A stretch of 64,000 bases of DNA, from NCBI GenBank assembly GCA_028707085.1, contig JAQTUW010000001.1, positions 57,030 through 121,029 on the forward strand, given 5' to 3'. Of this stretch, positions 26,377 to 61,949 are shown one piece after another. The number at the start of each line of letters is the position of its first letter. Positions within the stretch are counted from its first letter, which is position 1. Under the pieces are notes generated by a model. The model did not search any database and had not been told where the DNA came from. It saw only the letters and a list, made by a program, of their open reading frames with translations. Made by a program: the position numbers and the translations under genes. Source of the DNA: Methylococcales bacterium. Lineage in GTDB: Bacteria; Pseudomonadota; Gammaproteobacteria; Methylococcales; Methylomonadaceae.

Positions 26377-27732
26377 CTAGAACGCCAGTGCGCTATTGAC
26401 CATGAAGGTGTTGTTATCCTGAGCGCCGGCGCTGGCCCCATTGAATTGAGTGTAGGCAATATATTGTAGGTAAGTGCGTAAATTCATCAGGTATGCATAT
26501 TCATGCGATTTACCGAACGGTACATAATCCAGTTCCACAGTGTAGGATTCGCTGTTTGGCCGGGCTATGGCGTTACCCGAATAAAGCGCGGCGTCCGTTG
26601 AGCCGGTCGTTTTGTAATAGGCGAGGTTAATCCCATAGGTTTGTTCGAAGGTATACGTGGCGTTGAATCTAAATGTGGTCAGATAAGTGTTGCCGCTGGA
26701 ATTAACGCCACCGGTAAGCCGGCTTGCCGATAAATTCTGATCTTCATAGATATAAGTCGTTTTGGCTTCGAAGATATGCCGGGTATTACCCATGTATTGA
26801 TAGGTGGCGTCGACCCCGACATCGGTGTATTTGTCCATGCCGCTACTGGTGACGCGTCCAGGCAGCGATATATCGGCGATCATGCCGTACTGGCCAACTG
26901 ATAAGTAATGCCCTTGCCAGTCTTGTTGCAACGCCACGCGCCAGTATGGTGCGGGGCTGCCCACGGTCAACTGGCTGGAGCCGGTGATGCCGAATGCGTT
27001 CTGGGCATTGCCGGAAAACGAACCGTAAGCGCCGGCTTCCAGATATAGAAGATTGTTAATCATGGTATAAGCCGTCGCGCCGCCCACCAGATGAGAAAGC
27101 CCGCCGTCAATCAATGTGGCGGCGCCGGGGAGAGGTTCGATCGAGTTGCCGGTATAAGGATATCCCCAGGCCGGCGTGGAATTCCATAAGTCCTGTACCG
27201 TAGGATTGTTGTTTAACGAGATGCCGTAGGTTACTGGCATGTCGAACATTTCCAATTGGTCGGCAAAGCGGACATCGCTACCGCCCAGACTGAGCTGATC
27301 CGCATAGCCGTCATAATCGATGTGGCTGTATGCGCCAACCTTGCCGTAAATTCGGCCTGCATAAAACAGCGATGCTTCGTCGAAAGTGAAGTTGTTGTTT
27401 TTATTGTAACCCGGCAGCAGGGTGCCGGGGGCCTGATCTGCCTGGGTATTGGTGAATGAGCCCGTTACCGTCGCGCTTAATGCAGGCATTTTGGCTGCAA
27501 TGCCGCTGCCGCCGCCCGCAGTGTAACCGTTAAGTTTAAAGTCGCGACCAAGAGGCGTCAGGTTAGGCCCGTAAGCCTGGGTGTGGCAGACGCTGCAGGC
27601 TTGACCTGTTTGCCTGGAAAAACTAGGTAGCGCCTGTGCTGTTGGGGTTGTCAGCACCATGACTGATGCGACTGTCAGGAGCAATGCCAGGACATAATTC
27701 AAATTGTTGCTGCGCTTAACTGCATATTGCAT
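26377..27732 (-). CDS. Outer-membrane beta-barrel protein with a single N-terminal CxxCH (fused monohaem cytochrome-porin architecture)
   Basis: The signal peptide ends ...TPTAQA. It is followed by LPSFSRQTGQACSVCHTQAYGPNLTPLGRDFKLNGYT, which contains the only two Cys in the protein. About 380 aa of alternating Tyr/Gly/Thr-rich beta-strand-like sequence then ends in a terminal aromatic (...NSALAF). Confidence 0.6.
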   Translation of the reverse strand: MQYAVKRSNNLNYVLALLLTVASVMVLTTPTAQALPSFSRQTGQACSVCHTQAYGPNLTPLGRDFKLNGYTAGGGSGIAAKMPALSATVTGSFTNTQADQAPGTLLPGYNKNNNFTFDEASLFYAGRIYGKVGAYSHIDYDGYADQLSLGGSDVRFADQLEMFDMPVTYGISLNNNPTVQDLWNSTPAWGYPYTGNSIEPLPGAATLIDGGLSHLVGGATAYTMINNLLYLEAGAYGSFSGNAQNAFGITGSSQLTVGSPAPYWRVALQQDWQGHYLSVGQYGMIADISLPGRVTSSGMDKYTDVGVDATYQYMGNTRHIFEAKTTYIYEDQNLSASRLTGGVNSSGNTYLTTFRFNATYTFEQTYGINLAYYKTTGSTDAALYSGNAIARPNSESYTVELDYVPFGKSHEYAYLMNLRTYLQYIAYTQFNGASAGAQDNNTFMVNSALAF

Positions 27733-55099: not shown

Positions 55100-55567
55100 T
55101 TATCCGCTTCCGCAGCCGCCCTGCACCACCGTTACCCATTGCCGGGTTTTCAGCAGCCGCGACTCATGCTCGGCAATCACCAGCACATGGCTGCTGGCCG
55201 CCATCTTGATCCGGGCGGCGATATAGGCCGAAACCGTATCGGCCAGTTCAAATTCGGCTGTCAGCGGAGTAGGGTTGTTTTCCACCAGAATATAGACCCG
55301 GCGGATATTTTTCAGCGCGCTGCTGATGGTGACCGGCACGGCCGCGCCATCTTCGGCGATGTCCGGTACGGACAGCGTGATCGCCGGGCTATCGATCAGC
55401 GGCTGCCCGGCAAACAGCCCGGCAAGGGCGTCGTCAAGCCGGCTGGCGCTGAAATACTCGGCCAGCCGGGCGGCGACCGCGGAATCCGGCCATAAGCCGG
55501 ACAGCAGCCAGCCCAGCCAGCCTAGCCCCTGTCTGAGAAAAAGTCGGCGGCTTGAAAGCAAGTGCAT
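55100..55567 (-). CDS. SoxY-like sulfur carrier protein (Tat signal, C-terminal GGCGSG)
   Basis: The twin-arginine leader is SSRRLFLRQG. The body is Ig-like. The C-terminus ...VTVVQGGCGSG resembles the SoxY GGCGG swinging arm. No soxZ is adjacent. Confidence 0.65.
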   Translation of the reverse strand: MHLLSSRRLFLRQGLGWLGWLLSGLWPDSAVAARLAEYFSASRLDDALAGLFAGQPLIDSPAITLSVPDIAEDGAAVPVTISSALKNIRRVYILVENNPTPLTAEFELADTVSAYIAARIKMAASSHVLVIAEHESRLLKTRQWVTVVQGGCGSG

Positions 55568-55668
55568 ATTTATTGATGTGGATCAAAAAAATAAACAAGC
55601 CATTTAGTATCCTTTGCTCCGTTGAAATTATTCAGCACCATCTAAACAACAAATAAGGAAGGTACAAA

Positions 55669-55863
55669 ATGAGTGAAGTTCAAGAAAAAGACAATTTCTG
55701 GCTCTATATTGGCATCGCTGTTGTATTGTTTGCCGGTGTGATCTTTATGGTAAAAAACTCCGAGCACGATAAATATGCATCTGCTTCAAAAGCAATCGCA
55801 GAAGACTCAAGCAATTCAGCTTACCGTAACGACGTGCTGCACAGCCAGGGCGCACAAAAATAA
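55669..55863 (+). CDS. Small single-TM protein (64 aa), hypothetical
   Basis: An SD-like AAGGAAGG lies upstream. The single TM is FWLYIGIAVVLFAGVIFMV. A clean terminator follows. Confidence 0.45.
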   Translation: MSEVQEKDNFWLYIGIAVVLFAGVIFMVKNSEHDKYASASKAIAEDSSNSAYRNDVLHSQGAQK

Positions 55864-55961
55864 TGAATCATTATACCAAAGCCGGCAGCCTGCCGTCGCC
55901 GGTTTTGGGAAGGTGAGAGCGTGAAGATTATACTCCTTTAAAAGTGATTAGCGTGCGGGAC

Positions 55962-56004
55962 TGAGCTCTGATGAAACGACTGTTTTGTCAGAGCTCATTT
56001 TTTT
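55962..56004 (+). terminator. Rho-independent terminator
   Basis: A 10-bp stem, TGAGCTCTGA (55962-55971) pairing with TCAGAGCTCA (55988-55997), is followed by 7 T. Confidence 0.75.
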
Positions 56005-56321
56005 AGGTTCAGGTCGAAGATTTAGGCCGAAAGACTGCGTTGCGGCTCAAAATCCGCTCAGCGCAAACCGCAGGCCCATCCCGCGCCGCCAAACCAATTG
56101 CCGCAAATACAAACCGGGATTGCTGCGCAAAGCAGCCCAAGCCCGCGCGCCGTCTGGCCGCGCAATTGCAGCCACGGCTGTGGCTGGTTTTAAATTCCCG
56201 AAAATCCCGAAAAAAATTCAAATAGTCTGTAACAAAATCGCTGTTTCGCCGACTGATGCATCAGGAAAGCAAACCATGCTTTCCTCTTTGTCCATCAATT
56301 CAACCCGAGAGGCTTAACAGC

Positions 56322-56651
56322 ATGAACAAAAAATCCCTAGCGCTGACGCTTGGCGGCGCAGTCGCCACCATATTGACCGCCAGTCCATTGGTTCACGCCC
56401 AGGAAAATCCGTTCGGCATGCAAAAAATCAGCGCTTCGCAAGCCCTTGCCCAGGCTGATGCAAAAATGCCCGAGGGCGGTTGCAGCGCCGCAAAAATGCC
56501 GGAAGGCAAATGCGGCGAAGGCAAGTGCGGGGCCAGTAAAAATAAAATGAAAGAAGGCGGCTGTAGCGGCGCGGCCAAATCCGGTCAAAAAATGAAAGAG
56601 GGCGGATGCAGCGGCAAAATGAAGGAAGGTGGTTGCAGCGGCAAAATGTAA
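56322..56651 (+). CDS. Secreted Cys-repeat RiPP precursor of the HvfA / EGKCG-bufferin type
   Basis: The signal peptide is MNKKSLALTLGGAVATILTASPLVHA. The core region carries six Cys in the repeats KMPEGGCS, KMPEGKCGEGKCG, KMKEGGCSG (x3). It lies immediately upstream of the DUF692/MNIO gene. Confidence 0.75.
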   Translation: MNKKSLALTLGGAVATILTASPLVHAQENPFGMQKISASQALAQADAKMPEGGCSAAKMPEGKCGEGKCGASKNKMKEGGCSGAAKSGQKMKEGGCSGKMKEGGCSGKM

Positions 56652-56714
56652 ACAAGCCAGGCCGCCAATAAACGTTATTGACGGCCTGCTCTTAAAATTC
56701 AGCGGGAGATAACA

Positions 56715-56849
56715 ATGTCAGTCATGTGCAAAATGAATAATCAATGCAGCCAGAAAAAAGGCCTGTGCAGCCATGAAACAATGATGCTGGCCGTGATGGC
56801 GGCGGGGGTGTTAGCGGCCATCGGGCACTGGGTTCTGGGCTGGTTCTAG
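56715..56849 (+). CDS. Unlisted 44-aa ORF: Cys-containing N-terminus plus one TM helix
   Basis: The product is MSVMCKMNNQCSQKKGLCSHETMMLAVMAAGVLAAIGHWVLGWF. GGGAGA lies 6-11 nt upstream of the ATG. The stop is 7 nt before the MNIO start. The ORF is below the size cut-off of the supplied track. Confidence 0.45.
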   Translation: MSVMCKMNNQCSQKKGLCSHETMMLAVMAAGVLAAIGHWVLGWF

Positions 56850-56856
56850 AAAATCC

Positions 56857-57690
56857 ATGCAATCCTTTAATATCTGCGGCGGCGGACTGGGGCTGCGCCG
56901 CGAATTTTTACCGGCTCTGGAGGCGGGCGTGCCGGACGCCATCCGGTTTTTTGAAGTCTCGCCGGAAAACTGGATGGATGTGGGCGGAAATCCAGGCAAG
57001 CTGTTTCGCCGTTACACCGAGCAGCATCCCTTCGTGGCGCACGGCCTATCCTTGTCGATCGGTGGCCCTGCGCCGCTGGATAGAACCTTTTTGCAACGCC
57101 TGAAGGTTTTTCTCGATGAGCATGATTTCGTACTCTATACGGAACATTTAAGTTATTGCAGCGATGCCGGCCATCATTACGATCTTTATCCCATCCCGTT
57201 TACCGGGGAAGCTGTGCGCCATGTTGCGGAACGGCTGCGCATGGCCCAGGATATTCTGGAGCGGCCTATCGCCCTGGAAAACGCTTCTTACTATGTTCAG
57301 CCGCCATTAGCCGAAATGGATGAACTGGCGTTTATCAACGCGGTATTGGCCGAAGCCGATTGCCCTTTACATCTGGATGTGAATAACATTTACGTCAACA
57401 GCCTCAATCACCATTACAATGCCGCCGAGTTTTTAAAGGGCTTATGCGGCGAACGCATTGTTTATGGGCATGTCGCCGGACACGATCAGGACAAGTCGGG
57501 GATGATAATCGACACCCATGGTCAGGCGGCTTGCCAACCGGTTTGGGAATTACTGGATCTGGCGTATCAAAATTTCGGCGTATTCCCGACTTTACTGGAA
57601 CGGGATTTCAACATGCCGCCTTTTGCCGGGCTGTTAACGGAAGTGGAACAGATCGCCAGGCTGCAACAGCGTTATGGAGATGGATCGTGA
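56857..57690 (+). CDS. DUF692 / MNIO (multinuclear non-haem iron oxidase, MbnB/HvfB/BufB-like) RiPP-modifying enzyme
   Basis: The protein contains GLGLRREF, FFEVSPENWM, HGLSLSIGG, YTEHLSYC, ALENASYY, LHLDVNNIYVNS and GHVAGH, which are TIM-barrel DUF692 motifs. Confidence 0.9.
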   Translation: MQSFNICGGGLGLRREFLPALEAGVPDAIRFFEVSPENWMDVGGNPGKLFRRYTEQHPFVAHGLSLSIGGPAPLDRTFLQRLKVFLDEHDFVLYTEHLSYCSDAGHHYDLYPIPFTGEAVRHVAERLRMAQDILERPIALENASYYVQPPLAEMDELAFINAVLAEADCPLHLDVNNIYVNSLNHHYNAAEFLKGLCGERIVYGHVAGHDQDKSGMIIDTHGQAACQPVWELLDLAYQNFGVFPTLLERDFNMPPFAGLLTEVEQIARLQQRYGDGS

Positions 57691-58460
57691 TGGCTTTTCA
57701 AACCGTGCAGCGGCAGTTTTTAGCCCATTTGCGTAATTCCGAAAAACAGCCCTTACCCGCTGGTTTTGCCGAACAGGGCGCGGCAGTTTACGCCGAACTG
57801 CTGTATAACAAATTCAATGACAGCCTGGAACTGTGCTTTCCGCTCAGCCGGGAGATTTTGGGCGCGGCGGGCTGGCGACGACTGGTAAAGGATTTCATAG
57901 CGGATCATTGCTGTACCTCGCCTTACTATCGGCAGATTCCCGACCAGTTTATCCGTTATTTGCAAACTGAACGCTGTAGTCCATCCGATCCGCCGTTTTT
58001 ACTGGAATTGGCGCATTTTGAATGGGTGGAGCTGGTATTGGCGGTTACGGTAGCCGAACCGGTTCCGGCGTTTACCCCCGGCATGGCGGCGGACAGCCTG
58101 CAATATCGGCCGCTGTTCGCACCGATTTTCCAGCTGCTGGATTATGGCTATCCGGTGCAACGCATTAACGCCGGCTACCAGCCGGCCATCCCCCCCGATC
58201 AGGCCACGCATATTTTAGGGTTCAGAGATCGGGACGACGCGGTGCAATTTATCGAACTGCAACCGGCGACCGCCCGGCTGCTGGACATTTTAAAATCCGC
58301 CGCCTGCACTGTCGCGGAAGCGGTAACCCAAATCGCCGCCGAGCTGGGGCATCCCGATCCGGCCGCGCTGTCCGGTTTTGGCGTCGAAACCATGATCAGC
58401 CTGATGCGGCAAGGCGCTATACTTGCCCTGATAGCTCAACCGGAGTCACGCCATGAATAA
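57690..58460 (+). CDS. DUF2063 partner protein (HvfC/BufC-like)
   Basis: The N-terminus FQ.VQRQFLAHLRN....P......G.AVYAELLYNKFNDSLELCFP is characteristic of DUF2063. The ATG shares a base with the MNIO stop (TGATG). Confidence 0.75.
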   Translation: MAFQTVQRQFLAHLRNSEKQPLPAGFAEQGAAVYAELLYNKFNDSLELCFPLSREILGAAGWRRLVKDFIADHCCTSPYYRQIPDQFIRYLQTERCSPSDPPFLLELAHFEWVELVLAVTVAEPVPAFTPGMAADSLQYRPLFAPIFQLLDYGYPVQRINAGYQPAIPPDQATHILGFRDRDDAVQFIELQPATARLLDILKSAACTVAEAVTQIAAELGHPDPAALSGFGVETMISLMRQGAILALIAQPESRHE

Positions 58461-59013
58461 AACCGTCTCTTCGACAGACTGCGCTGTTTGCCCCATGCTG
58501 TTGACGCTTCGGGCTTTGTGGGCCATGATCCGCAAAACCTGGCGCTGGCTCAATAACGATGCCGGCGCTTACGCGCCGTTATTGCCGAGGCTGCTGCTGG
58601 CTTACGAGTTTCTGGAGGCGGGGCGGGAAAAATTATCCGCCGAAAACTGGTTTTCCGAACTGGCGTTTCCGTTTCCATTTAATTTATTATCAGCGGACGT
58701 AAACTGGGAGTTGTCTATCGGACTGGAAATCATCGCCCCCATCGCCCTGATTTTAGGCATTGCCACCCGCTTTTTCAGCGCGGCGCTGGCTGTGCTGACG
58801 ATAGTCGCCATTGCCGTAGCGCATTGGCCCGGGCAATGGCAGTCCCTGGCCGAATTGTGGCGTGGTTACGCCATTACCGACCAGGGTTACGGCAATTACA
58901 AGTTACCTTTAATGTATTTGTTCATGCTGATCTCCCTGCTATTGAGCGGCGGCGGCCGGTTAAGCATGGATGCCTGGCTGGCCTGCCGAATGAAACAGTT
59001 TAACGATGGATAA
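58453..59013 (+). CDS. DoxX-family membrane protein
   Basis: It is a four-helix hydrophobic protein containing LLPRLLLAYEFLEAGREKL. It overlaps the upstream gene by 8 nt. Confidence 0.7.
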   Translation: MNKTVSSTDCAVCPMLLTLRALWAMIRKTWRWLNNDAGAYAPLLPRLLLAYEFLEAGREKLSAENWFSELAFPFPFNLLSADVNWELSIGLEIIAPIALILGIATRFFSAALAVLTIVAIAVAHWPGQWQSLAELWRGYAITDQGYGNYKLPLMYLFMLISLLLSGGGRLSMDAWLACRMKQFNDG

Positions 59014-59569
59014 AAACCAGTTGCATACCCACCGCGAAGTATTGTTCCGCTATGCCCTGTTGCAAGTGCGTAACGAAGCCGCTGCGGAAGACGCTGTGCA
59101 GGACACCCTGCTGGCCGCCTTTCAATCAGGCGACAGTTTTCGAAACGAATCGGCTGTCAGAACCTGGTTGATCGGCATTCTGAAACATAAGATCGCCGAC
59201 CACCACCGCGCCGCCGAAAAAATACATAGCCTGGCGGAGCATGGCGATGGCGATGAATCCGATCCGGACGCAGCCGTCGAAAGATTGATTTTTGACGACA
59301 AAGGCCATTGGATCGGTACGCCCGGCGCCTGGAAGGAGCCTGATCACGCCCTGGAACAAAGCGAGTTCTGGGCGATTTTCGACTGGTGCCGGCAAAACCT
59401 GCCGCCGCCGCACGCCAGGGCGTTCATGTTAAGGGAGATGGTCGGCCTTGAAACCGATGATATTTGTTTGGACATGCAGATCAGCCACGGCGCCTGCCGG
59501 GTTTATTTGCACAGGGCGCGGCTGGTATTGCGGGAATGCCTGGAACTGCGCTGGTTTAATTCTAATTGA
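59006..59569 (+). CDS. ECF-type RNA polymerase sigma factor
   Basis: Region 2 is FRYALLQVRNEAAAEDAVQDTLLAAF...RTWLIGILKHKIADHHR. A region 4 HTH is present. It overlaps the DoxX gene by 8 nt. Confidence 0.85.
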   Translation: MDKNQLHTHREVLFRYALLQVRNEAAAEDAVQDTLLAAFQSGDSFRNESAVRTWLIGILKHKIADHHRAAEKIHSLAEHGDGDESDPDAAVERLIFDDKGHWIGTPGAWKEPDHALEQSEFWAIFDWCRQNLPPPHARAFMLREMVGLETDDICLDMQISHGACRVYLHRARLVLRECLELRWFNSN

Positions 59570-59751
59570 ACAATATGAAGAACTGTAAAGACATTAGCGG
59601 ACTCGTTTCGGAAAGCATGGATCGACCTCTGACATTCCGGGAGCGCTGGGCCGTGCGCCTGCATTTTTTCATGTGCCGCTCCTGTGCGCGGTTTCAGCGA
59701 CAAATCCGCTTTCTGCGCAAGATGGCCAGCCGTTACCAGCCCGGGGATTAA
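59566..59751 (+). CDS. Short zf-HC2 (ZAS-type) anti-sigma factor without a TM segment
   Basis: The H-x3-C-x2-C motif is HFFMCRSC. The gene overlaps the sigma factor gene by 4 nt. Confidence 0.7.
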   Translation: MNNMKNCKDISGLVSESMDRPLTFRERWAVRLHFFMCRSCARFQRQIRFLRKMASRYQPGD

Positions 59752-59787
59752 CCGTCACGGCGTCTAATCCGCCTGCCTGCGCATGGT

Positions 59788-60528
59788 TTACGCCTGCGCC
59801 GAGACTACCGCGTTTAACAGGGAGATGGCCTTGCGCATGCCGGTTTCCAGATTTTTTTCGATTTCCGCCATGCTGATCTCGCCGGCGGCCAGTCCAGCGC
59901 CCCAGTTGGCCACCACCGAAATATTGGCGTAAGCCATGTCCAGTTCTTTGGCCAGTGCGGCTTCCGGCATGCCGGTCATGCCCACCAGGTCGCAGCCGTC
60001 TTTAGCCAGTCGCGCTATTTCCGCCGCTGTTTCCAGTCTTGGCCCTTGCGTACAGGCGTATGCGCCGGTAGCCGTGATGGCGACGCCTGCCAGAGCGGCG
60101 GCGGCGATAAGCCGTTCCCGCAGGCTTTGGGTATAGGGATAAGAAAAATCGATATGGGTGACATGATCCTGCTCGCCGTCAAAAAAAGTATGTTCCCGGC
60201 CATAACTGTAATCGATGATCTGATCGGGTATGGCGATATGCCCCGGCGTCATGGCCGCACTGACGCCACCCACCGCGGCAACCCCGATGATGCTGTCGGC
60301 TCCCAGTTGCTTTAGGCCCCAGATATTGGCCCGATAGTTGATTTTATGGGGCGGAATGCGGTGCGGATTGCCGTGTCTGGCCAGAAACAGCAGTTTTGTC
60401 CCGTTCAGTTCCGCTCGCAGATAGTCTGCGGACGGCTCGCCGTACGGGGTTTGCAGTTTTATCCTGTCTATGATCTCAAGATCATCGATCTGCGTCAGGC
60501 CGGTACCGCCAATAATTGCCAGTGTCAT
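59788..60528 (-). CDS. mtnP: S-methyl-5'-thioadenosine/-thioinosine phosphorylase
   Basis: The protein contains IIGGTGL, FLARHG..H.IPPH.INYRANIW.LK.LG and GMTGMPEA, which are PNP/MTAP family motifs. Confidence 0.85.
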   Translation of the reverse strand: MTLAIIGGTGLTQIDDLEIIDRIKLQTPYGEPSADYLRAELNGTKLLFLARHGNPHRIPPHKINYRANIWGLKQLGADSIIGVAAVGGVSAAMTPGHIAIPDQIIDYSYGREHTFFDGEQDHVTHIDFSYPYTQSLRERLIAAAALAGVAITATGAYACTQGPRLETAAEIARLAKDGCDLVGMTGMPEAALAKELDMAYANISVVANWGAGLAAGEISMAEIEKNLETGMRKAISLLNAVVSAQA

Positions 60529-61196: not shown

Positions 61197-61363
61197 CTAG
61201 GAGCCTGTCCGAGAATAGAAAACCTACTGCGGAAAAGCCCTTTTGGCCGGATTTCCTGCGCATTTTCGTTAAATAGCGCAACTATTCCGCCTCAAATGCC
61301 CAAAAAATTCAACTCAAAATGGCTTTCCCTCGCTACGGCTTCTATTCTCGGACAGGCTCCTAG
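61197..61363. mobile_element. MITE-like element (~167 bp) with perfect 24-bp terminal inverted repeats including CTAG ends
   Basis: The left end CTAGGAGCCTGTCCGAGAATAGAA (61197-61220) is the exact reverse complement of the right end TTCTATTCTCGGACAGGCTCCTAG (61340-61363). No ORF lies inside. The CTAG at both ends is compatible with an IS5-type 4-bp target duplication. Confidence 0.75.
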
Positions 61364-61693
61364 CGCGATAAGCATTTCAGTGGATTTTATAGTCTTTTGC
61401 CTGTCATCAAAGGTTACTTCGTCATTAAGAAAATAATCGGCAGTTGTTCTACGATCCTTGAGATTTTTAAGCATGTATCCGATTTGCCGGTCTGTGGAAC
61501 TTGGACTTTTGACCAGACTATCTATCAATTGCGAATGAACGCCGCCTGATATGTTTTTATTGGCAAGAAACTTTTCGGAACAATGGTGGTAGGCGGCATA
61601 ATAAGCCCGGCTAATGGCGTTTCGGTTATTTATTTCATTATAGGCAGGCAGGTTTTTAGCAAAACTCAGGAATTCGTCTTTGTTAATTGCCAT
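61292..61693 (-). CDS. HEPN-domain-like protein whose last 24 codons are supplied by the MITE
   Basis: RNAISRAYYAAYHH and RRTTADY are typical of the HEPN helices 1-2 and the conserved R..(A/S)DY block. The reading frame enters the MITE at LGA (61363). Confidence 0.6.
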   Translation of the reverse strand: MAINKDEFLSFAKNLPAYNEINNRNAISRAYYAAYHHCSEKFLANKNISGGVHSQLIDSLVKSPSSTDRQIGYMLKNLKDRRTTADYFLNDEVTFDDRQKTIKSTEMLIALGACPRIEAVARESHFELNFLGI

Positions 61694-61700
61694 GCCGGAT

Positions 61701-61949
61701 CTATCTAAATGAAATCGAAAGCCTGCCTAAATCGAAATTCTCCGCTTCAGCAAATTTTTTGAACAGTTCAAAGTTCATGTCAACTGTAGTATTGACATCA
61801 GCATTGGTTTCAAGTCTTCTAAGTAGGCCGTCGTCGACCGGAATGACGGAAACAGATTCAATTTTAACTGAGTGTCCTACGCTCACTTCATCCACAAATC
61901 TGGCGGCTTGAGCCAATGCTTCCGTTGATACCCCTAAATCCAGAATCAT
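61701..61949 (-). CDS. Hypothetical 82-aa protein, upstream partner of the HEPN gene
   Basis: It lies 7 nt upstream of the HEPN gene on the same strand. It has no nucleotidyltransferase (GS-x-ARG / DxD) motif and no recognised family. Confidence 0.4.
   Translation of the reverse strand: MILDLGVSTEALAQAARFVDEVSVGHSVKIESVSVIPVDDGLLRRLETNADVNTTVDMNFELFKKFAEAENFDLGRLSISFR

Follow-up and report, generated by a model that had tools for sequence, protein, structure and literature searches.

Gene content of the operon

The window analysed here is a 64,000-nucleotide stretch of contig JAQTUW010000001.1 (assembly GCA_028707085.1), which belongs to a metagenome-assembled genome (MAG) of a Methylococcales bacterium. 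Its subject is a set of seven co-directional genes on the + strand, spanning 56322-59751, that together make up one HvfABCX-type MNIO operon for a peptide made on the ribosome and modified after translation (RiPP). Operons of this type are also referred to as oxazolin, Buf_EGKCG or captophorin operons, and the loci closest to that of the window come from Methylobacter. The first gene (56322-56651) encodes an HvfA-like precursor of 109 amino acids (aa) and is followed by a small open reading frame (mini-ORF) of 44 codons (56715-56849). The MNIO enzyme of the HvfB family (56857-57690, 277 aa) and its partner HvfC or PME1, a DUF2063 protein with an NGO1945-like, RRE-like C-terminal domain (57690-58460, 256 aa), come next, and after them a DoxX membrane protein of the HvfX family (58453-59013, 186 aa). 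The last two genes encode an extracytoplasmic function (ECF) sigma factor of the TIGR02943 family with Sigma70_r2 and r4_2 regions (59006-59569, 187 aa) and a cytoplasmic ZAS anti-sigma factor with a zf-HC2 domain and the residues Cys4, His30, Cys34 and Cys37 (59575-59751, 58 aa).

An earlier note on this DNA had described seven genes on one strand, and all seven are present on the + strand in the places it gave them. It had also listed four junction overlaps. The 1-nt TGATG overlap, at the MNIO stop codon and the start of the partner gene, and both 8-nt overlaps are real, but the 4-nt overlap between the sigma and anti-sigma genes needs a TTG start at 59566; with the ATG start at 59575 the two genes are separated by a gap of 5 nt. 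The genes that flank the operon are of a housekeeping kind, and include mutL, miaA, a gene of the purine/methylthioadenosine phosphorylase family, a phosphoribosyltransferase gene and a gene for a family-3 glycoside hydrolase.

Family assignment of the core enzymes

Gene identities were judged by Pfam and NCBIfam models at their curated cut-offs. The MNIO enzyme passes the HvfB family model NF003818 (393.5 bits, cut-off 360) and scores 324 bits with Pfam PF05114 (MbnB_TglH_ChrH, cut-off 25), while its partner passes the HvfC model NF050145 (243, cut-off 142) and also matches PF09836 and PF22106. DoxX passes the HvfX model NF050144 (122.5, cut-off 80), the sigma factor passes TIGR02943 (204 bits, cut-off 162) and the anti-sigma factor passes NF052368, named 'antisigmaE' (77.5, cut-off 50). 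The DUF692/MNIO, DUF2063 and DoxX identities first proposed from the translated frames hold at the cut-offs of the HvfB, HvfC and HvfX models, the first of these for the frame at 56857..57690. The precedents then cited for the enzyme pair fared unevenly. The comparison with HvfB/C stands, whereas the enzyme fails the BufB model NF050167 (246.8, cut-off 310), and so is not of the Bufferin 1/2 type, and also fails the MbnB model TIGR04159 (22 bits, cut-off 325); its partner is a DUF2063 protein and not MbnC.

Comparison with characterised enzymes leads to the same group. The MNIO enzyme shares 58% identity with FonB, 49% with NgoB and 44% with HvfB, and the partner protein shares 35% with FonC (sequences from PMC13097082). 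An RR pair at positions 14-15 and an ERDF motif align with FonB Arg15/Arg16 and Asp249/Phe250, and all of these residues are identical. In FonB, Arg15/Arg16 and Phe250 are substrate-contact residues and Asp249 is catalytic (PMC13097082). Among solved structures, the enzyme matches PDB 3BWW (4.5e-71), and PDB 3DEE is the solved relative of the partner protein. In Methylococcales, the DoxX/HvfX proteins are extended at the N-terminus by some 40 aa that include a conserved C-x-x-C motif, which reads TDCAVCP in the window (58453-58575). The extension is found in loci L001, L004, L013, L016, L020, L024 and L075, and is missing from more distant DoxX partners (L026, L045, L055 and L081).

The precursor and its repeats

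The N-terminus of the precursor, MNKKSLALTLGGAVATILTASPLVHA|QENPF..., consists of a Sec-type signal peptide, whose likely cleavage site follows VHA, and a conserved ENPF segment. The core that follows is built of KMPEGGCS, KMPEGKCGEGKCG and three copies of KMKEGGCSG, so that all six Cys lie inside repeats; the earlier description of the core sequence and of the placement of its Cys residues was exact. The sites run in the order EGGCS-EGKCG-EGKCG-EGGCS-EGGCS-EGGCS, and EGKCG accounts for two of the six. The precursor passes the model for the HvfA repeat domain narrowly (NF050137, 21.6, cut-off 19.5), no Pfam match was found for it, and a few of its close relatives already carry the NCBI name HvfA family. 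An in-frame ATG at 56256 was rejected as the start, as it lies within the conserved hairpin of the 5′ leader and the relatives all begin with MNKK.

The repeats with Gly before Cys and Ser after it had been singled out as unusual. The pattern is indeed there, but the Methylococcales as a whole share it, and the non-Lys repeat EGSCG is already present in the characterised precursor NgoA. Every Methylococcales relative has a core of the form E(G/A)(G/A/S)CS - EGKCG - EGKCG followed by two or three further E(G/A)GCS sites, whereas (E/D)GKCG is the sole kind of site in the precursors of Thiobacillus and other lineages. In the 120 closest database relatives, EGGCS repeats outnumber EGKCG repeats (327 versus 232), and the repeat order is small-K-K-small-small-small in 82 of the 120 and small-K-K-small-small in another 20. 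The FonBC enzyme pair tolerates Ala, Arg or Thr before Cys, and Gly or Ala only after Cys, and NgoA carries EGSCG repeats (PMC13097082). This tolerance, together with the NgoA repeats, makes EGGCS a plausible candidate substrate. It is a lineage-specific variant of the repeat. The Methylococcales precursors also constitute a natural test of substrate range, in which Gly-Cys-Ser stands beside Lys-Cys-Gly in one peptide.

A different arrangement is found in the precursors of locus L025 (5589-5990) and locus L037, which combine E/DGKCG-type sites with EF-hand-like DxNKDGxV segments. These match the 'second type' of Buf_EGKCG proteins (PMC12452194).

A probably undescribed family of small membrane proteins

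The additional mini-ORF that had been noticed between the precursor and enzyme genes is a real gene under purifying selection and belongs to a recurrent family. Homologues occupy the same slot in 16 of 57 genome loci, all of them Methylobacter-like; the ratio of nonsynonymous to synonymous substitution (dN/dS) is 0.10-0.20 at a proportion of synonymous differences (pS) of 0.5-0.7, and indels comprise only whole codons. Cys, His and Met abound in the N-terminal 22 aa of the protein (MSxMC-x5-C-x6-C-x-HE), and its C-terminal part is one membrane helix. The signature of the family is M-S-x-M-C, five or six residues, C, another five or six residues, G-(M/L)-C-x-H-E-K-M-M and about 20 hydrophobic residues, often with GH(W/F)xxxW(F/Y) at the end, and a member has on average 7.2 Met, 3.3 Cys and 2.3 His in 43 residues. 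AlphaFold2, run on a 99-sequence alignment, gives a confident helix at residues 19-40, and the N-terminal 18 residues are of low confidence. The net charge is +1.7 for the N-terminal tail and about 0 for the C-terminal end, a difference which suggests an N-in, tail-anchored topology.

The family is small and has almost no presence in annotation. An exhaustive phmmer search with the mini-protein against 1.84 billion representatives found 21 clusters at 50% identity, and a profile search found 323 proteins at E<=1, of which the best 120 are 37-50 aa long and have no Pfam domain and no informative name. In databases the members are unnamed or 'hypothetical', save for two evidently spurious JGI labels. 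The mini-protein has no match in Pfam or NCBIfam at E<=0.1, and the matches to Dicty_CTDC, WBP-1 and FixS that a Pfam scan of 19 members gave at E<=10 were rejected as composition artefacts. A word-indexed search with the single sequence returned only the sequence itself, and the consensus had no match in 72,556 plasmids. A locus search with a 19-sequence alignment found no sufficiently conserved stretch to work with, whereas a 7-sequence alignment did work. Searches of literature text and supplements found no description of the family, and the strings EGGCS, GGCSG and CIHEK gave no match in the supplements of two MNIO surveys, a weak negative since parts of that text are truncated. In one MNIO survey, the unannotated ORFs returned by RODEO formed no conserved families. 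What is new here is a small-protein family for which no description was found; the rest of the operon is a known system with a lineage variant.

The genomic neighbourhoods of the family were compared at 92 loci with 63 distinct sequences. About 32 of the 63 lie in or beside an MNIO cluster; among these clusters are the EGKCG type (in Methylococcales) and the DUF2282 (Buf1) type, and examples of such neighbourhoods are L069 (annotated as Novosphingobium), L062, L092-94, L103-109 and L142-150. Within such clusters the gene is placed before the precursor gene, between the precursor and MNIO genes, or after the partner gene. About 14 of the 63 are found beside an ECF sigma gene, mostly with an adjoining ZAS anti-sigma gene, and the others either have no such partner or accompany genes for an M48 peptidase, a DUF302 protein or a thioredoxin-like protein. 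The sequence GTAAGG(A/T)TT-N12-CGAC precedes the mini-protein gene where it heads a unit in ZAS lineages, and also at the stand-alone locus L071. It occurs in 14 of 67 distinct mini-protein upstream regions, compared with a background of 2.3% for a looser pattern.

Further genes were observed at some of these loci. In many Methylobacter loci, a gene for a 129-aa CMD/AhpD-like protein (PF02627, with a C-E-Y-C motif) lies between the precursor and MNIO genes (L010 5585-5977; also L008, L012, L016, L018, L054, L074 and L077-L079); some of these loci have it in place of the mini-ORF, while L008, L074 and L077-79 have both. The membrane helix of the mini-ORF is lost by frameshift in two Methylobacter MAG loci (L006 4239-4382 and L044 5859-5990), which could reflect decay of the gene or an error of assembly. 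Loci of another lineage that have both the mini-protein and a sigma/ZAS pair also encode a DsrE-like protein and secreted N-P-C-A-x-K repeat proteins (L125 891-1499 and 1598-1861; L110 1147-1734 and 1833-2114; L108 4051-4770; L114 2231-2959), some of the latter fused to a SoxA/TsdA-like cytochrome c domain. The N-P-C-A-x-K proteins may be a different Cys-repeat periplasmic family under the same type of sigma factor.

The sigma/anti-sigma pair and its promoter

The anti-sigma gene directly follows the sigma gene, and its 58-aa product has no hydrophobic stretch. Its H-x3-C-x2-C motif and N-terminal Cys place Cys4, His30, Cys34 and Cys37 at exactly the positions they have in MseR, for whose function these four residues matter (PMC2893595). 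A PDB sequence search with the protein gave no match. A TTG start at 59566, which would give a 61-aa protein, was rejected, as the in-frame upstream extension is not conserved. The relatives of the protein all begin with M-x-x-C, and from this and the non-conserved extension the ATG at 59575 is most likely the true start. The earlier note had regarded a 61-aa anti-sigma factor with no membrane anchor as unusual; the anchor is indeed missing, but the length is 58 aa and the anchor-less form is the norm (MseR, HrsE), as the match to MseR at all four positions implies for systems of this kind. In Neisseria meningitidis, the gene for MseR (NMB2145) shares an operon with the MNIO genes (PMC2893595), and in Haemophilus influenzae the soluble 67-aa HrsE protein restrains RpoE2 and controls the hvf/doxX operon (PMC7907618). 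Among the loci compared here, a sigma/anti-sigma pair is often present. Its place is downstream of DoxX in the window and in L001, L006, L009 and L014, whereas Methylomonas, Thiobacillus and others have it upstream of the precursor. The Buf_EGKCG survey lists no sigma genes for that class.

A predicted ECF-type promoter on the + strand precedes the precursor gene at 56229-56257, with a -35 element GTAAC (56229-56233), a 16-nt spacer and a -10 element CGACTGAT (56250-56257). The core motif GTAAC-N16-CGAC, which occupies 56229-56253, is not enriched in the window by itself (3 matches versus 1.0 expected, and 10 of 100 shuffles reach 3), and the two other matches, at 27523 and 28440, were therefore given no weight. 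The motif owes its significance solely to its conservation at related loci. Of 38 such loci in Methylococcales, 24 have GTAACAA-N-(C/T)CGAC(T/C)(G/A)AT at about -92 from the precursor ATG, with divergent spacers, and the remaining 14 have GTAAGGAAT-N12/13-CGACTGAT, so that one of the two forms is present in all 38. The promoter had been offered as weak evidence, and that estimate was too low given this conservation of position and the alternative form. The Neisseria sigmaE consensus is GTAAGGTT / CGTCTAA with a 12-13 nt spacer (PMC2893595), which is close to the form found in the 14 loci. An A-run at 56210-56216, upstream of the -35 element, has a counterpart in nearly all related loci and is possibly an UP-like element; Neisseria sigmaE promoters likewise have an AT-rich element upstream of -35 (PMC2893595). 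A scan of 55500-60200 for sigma-70 promoters and terminators gave counts equal to chance.

Hairpins and neighbouring genes

A terminator-like hairpin (55962-56007, + strand) with a 16-bp stem and a 4-nt loop, followed by TTTTTTTAGG, closes the upstream unit and is the 5′ boundary of the operon. The mRNA is predicted to start at A56263, 6 nt after the -10 element as in the mapped Neisseria start site. At this predicted 5′ end lies a hairpin (56263-56285, + strand) with arms AGGAAAGCA/TGCTTTCCT, in which 8 predicted pairs are kept in 20 sequences and one pair is compensatory (GC:7, GU:7, AU:6). It may stabilise the mRNA or have a regulatory role. In the loci of the second promoter group, the stem of this hairpin is longer and has an inserted inner helix.

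Another stem-loop (56658-56688, + strand; -19.4 kcal/mol, z = -2.1) begins just after the precursor stop codon. A GC-rich hairpin is found at this point in 33 of 34 distinct Methylococcales sequences that were folded (the exception being L024), and many of them then have a short T-run. This hairpin is probably a partial terminator, or attenuator, that raises the ratio of precursor to enzyme. The mini-ORF has its own Shine-Dalgarno sequence, GGGAGA at 56704-56709 (+ strand), which was read from the sequence and lies 5 nt before the ATG.

Outside the operon, a lone SoxY-family gene (PF13501, 97 bits) lies just upstream on the - strand at 55100-55567. Its product has a twin-arginine-like N-terminus and the C-terminal end ...VVQGGCGSG, and there are no other sox genes among the nearby ORFs that were scanned. 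Two adjoining small - strand ORFs, at 61292-61693 (133 aa) and 61701-61949 (82 aa), are found downstream of the phosphoribosyltransferase gene.

A model of the operon and its alternatives

The locus is best interpreted, with a probability of about 0.8, as a self-regulated operon of a Methylobacter-like methanotroph for a periplasmic 5-thiooxazole metallopeptide of the HvfA/oxazolin/Buf_EGKCG ('captophorin') kind. The gene identities, the conservation of the promoter and hairpins, the selection on the mini-protein and its linkage to MNIO clusters are observations on the loci compared; the chemistry, export, copper binding, inducing signal and autoregulation would follow by analogy with work on Neisseria, Haemophilus, Fontimonas and Caulobacter. 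In this model the 58-aa zinc-binding anti-sigma factor would retain the ECF sigma factor in the cytoplasm until thiol-reactive stress (HOCl and H2O2 oxidants, possibly copper) breaks the Cys4/His30/Cys34/Cys37 site and frees it. The sigma factor would then read the operon from GTAAC-N16-CGACTGAT, its own gene included, which would amount to positive feedback. The hairpin behind the precursor gene would let precursor mRNA accumulate above enzyme mRNA, and the MNIO/DUF2063 pair would convert the six precursor Cys in the cytoplasm to 5-thiooxazoles, at a cost of 4 Da each and with an expected absorbance near 305 nm. The peptide would be exported by Sec, lose its signal peptide and bind copper in the periplasm, and DoxX and the 44-aa mini-protein would act at the inner membrane, the latter, at a best guess, as a metal/thiol helper that faces the cytoplasm.

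Two elements of the chemistry and control differ from what had been assumed for such loci. The heterocycle/thioamide products cited in the earlier note, which go back to a first assignment as oxazolone/thioamide, have been superseded by a revision to 5-thiooxazole for HvfA, FonA and NgoA (PMC13097082), and 5-thiooxazoles were shown in the FonB product (PMC13097082). Loci of this kind had been called copper-responsive, but the documented inducers of ZAS-type sigma factors are the oxidants HOCl and H2O2, and not copper (PMC7907618). Oxazolin, fontiphorin, gonophorin and the bufferins are all known to bind copper. RpoE2 is required for HOCl induction of the H. influenzae doxX/hvf operon (PMC7907618).

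Several points weigh against the model. The strict model for HvfA equivalogs, NF050188, is not passed by the precursor (20.2, cut-off 95), and four of its six sites are Gly-Cys-Ser, while FonBC accepted only Gly or Ala after Cys. The T-run behind the post-precursor hairpin of the window is weak and the terminator scan lists this hairpin on the - strand only; with so poor a T-run, termination may be weak. In Caulobacter, DoxX is dispensable for both modification and copper protection. The meningococcal sigmaE is not induced by oxidants (PMC2893595), which makes the inducing signal uncertain.

A possible, if doubtful, alternative is that the operon serves mainly in defence of the envelope against oxidants or reactive sulfur or chlorine species, in which case the thiooxazole peptide would buffer redox state or thiols and its binding of copper would be secondary. 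HOCl, H2O2 and paraquat all induce RpoE2, which also has a part in the control of msrAB (PMC7907618), and ZAS anti-sigma factors of this type sense thiol oxidation. The proteins encoded in the same slot or regulon of relatives (CMD/AhpD-like, thioredoxin-like and DsrE-like proteins, DoxX and a SoxA/TsdA-like cytochrome c), as well as the conserved C-x-x-C of Methylococcales DoxX, are in keeping with such a role. All characterised products of the enzyme group bind copper, however, and bufferins protect from copper in vivo; moreover, copper stress also oxidises thiols, so that the two accounts are compatible.

For the mini-protein, the best guess is a co-regulated copper- or thiol-handling helper at the inner membrane face, possibly working with DoxX. 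More specifically, and only tentatively, the family could be a dedicated part of thiooxazole-metallopeptide pathways, either as a cytoplasm-side copper/thiol relay to DoxX or the export machinery or as a second membrane-bound MNIO substrate. A signalling role within the sigma/anti-sigma switch, such as that of a membrane-side metal or oxidant sensor acting on the anti-sigma factor, is unlikely. The gene does head a mini-sigma-anti-sigma unit in L058, L081, L085/L087, L108 and L124, is divergent from the pair in L114-L119 and L138, and has its own sigmaE-type promoter in such contexts, but a promoter of the sigma factor is to be expected for any member of its regulon. The mini-protein is also found with the unrelated NrsF-type anti-sigma factor and far from regulators (L071), and is absent from most sigma/ZAS-linked clusters. 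It is slightly harder still to see it as a second, non-secreted MNIO substrate in which three cytoplasm-facing Cys become thiooxazoles and form a membrane-anchored metal site. The gene usually adjoins that of the precursor or the MNIO enzyme, the three near-invariant Cys have small neighbours, copies that stand alone are found, as is also the case for bufferin precursors, and tandem precursor genes are known in MNIO clusters. The protein nevertheless has no signal peptide and no ENPF-type segment of the kind found in true precursors, and none of its Cys is in an E-G-x-C-G/S context, all of which argues against a normal substrate. For about one-fifth of the distinct members the neighbours are sigma/anti-sigma genes and the DNA examined contains no MNIO gene, and others occur with a peptidase, DUF302 or thioredoxin-like gene. 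Least credible by far is a mini-ORF with no protein function, whether a chance frame or a short upstream frame that serves to bring ribosomes to the MNIO gene; the strong GGGAGA before the mini-ORF, the absence of one before the MNIO gene and the 7 nt between the two would fit the latter. It is contradicted by the dN/dS of 0.10-0.20 and the whole-codon indels, and the motif and membrane helix are kept across the 323-member family. The variable position relative to the MNIO gene and the stand-alone copies likewise argue against a role as a mere translational leader.

Significance

Clusters of MNIO and PME1 genes occur in about half of Pseudomonadota reference genomes and also in several pathogens. 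The mini-protein is a candidate new component of these clusters that recurs with two precursor classes, in alpha- and gammaproteobacteria, and is mostly unannotated. If true, a relay or second-substrate role would help explain DoxX, or how modification and Sec export are coordinated. Methanotrophs need copper for methane monooxygenase, so a peptide that buffers copper in the periplasm could have a bearing on methane oxidation, although this is speculation.

Comparison with known systems

Precursors with EGKCG repeats that are encoded with MNIO, DUF2063 and DoxX proteins are a described class that comprises oxazolin/HvfA, Buf_EGKCG, fontiphorin, gonophorin, bulbicupramide and the 'captophorins'. 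The Neisseria operon NMB2140-NMB2145 / NGO1948-1943 (ngoXABC with sigmaE and MseR) has the same gene set as the operon in the window. NMB2140-2145 was described as DoxX, three then-unknown genes, rpoE and MseR, co-transcribed and autoregulated (PMC2893595), and the identical gonococcal operon identifies the three as genes for an MNIO enzyme (NGO1947-type), the DUF2063 protein NGO1945 and the precursor of the gonophorin cluster. Both operons encode a short cytoplasmic ZAS anti-sigma factor with Cys4/His30/Cys34/Cys37, both have a similar promoter architecture (GTAAG/C ... CG(T/A)C), and in both the precursor mixes Lys and non-Lys repeats, which in Neisseria are EGKCG and EGSCG. They differ in that DoxX is first in Neisseria and fifth in the window, that no mini-protein is reported for Neisseria, and that the window has EGGCS repeats (Gly before and Ser after Cys) and a DoxX with an N-terminal C-x-x-C extension.

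The hvfXABC (oxazolin) operon of H. influenzae has the same four core families, and there too an ECF sigma factor is restrained by a small soluble ZAS protein. The RpoE2/HrsE pair is, however, encoded elsewhere on the chromosome, and HvfA has only EGKCG sites. The fontiphorin cluster fonABC of Fontimonas thermophila, the best-studied captophorin, also has EGKCG repeats and includes the characterised enzyme closest to the MNIO enzyme of the window (PMC13097082). In contrast to the window, FonA has only (E/A)GKCG-type sites, and no sigma/anti-sigma pair, DoxX or mini-protein is listed for the cluster. Bufferin 1 clusters (bufABCD with SigF/NrsF; gig operons) have a role in copper protection. Their precursor is a folded DUF2282 domain and not a repeat peptide, and their anti-sigma factor is the membrane protein NrsF. 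They nonetheless share with the operon in the window an MNIO enzyme, a DUF2063 protein, DoxX, a Sec-targeted Cys peptide and a nearby ECF sigma factor, and some Buf1 clusters (L062, L069, L092-94 and L142) also carry a homologue of the mini-protein.

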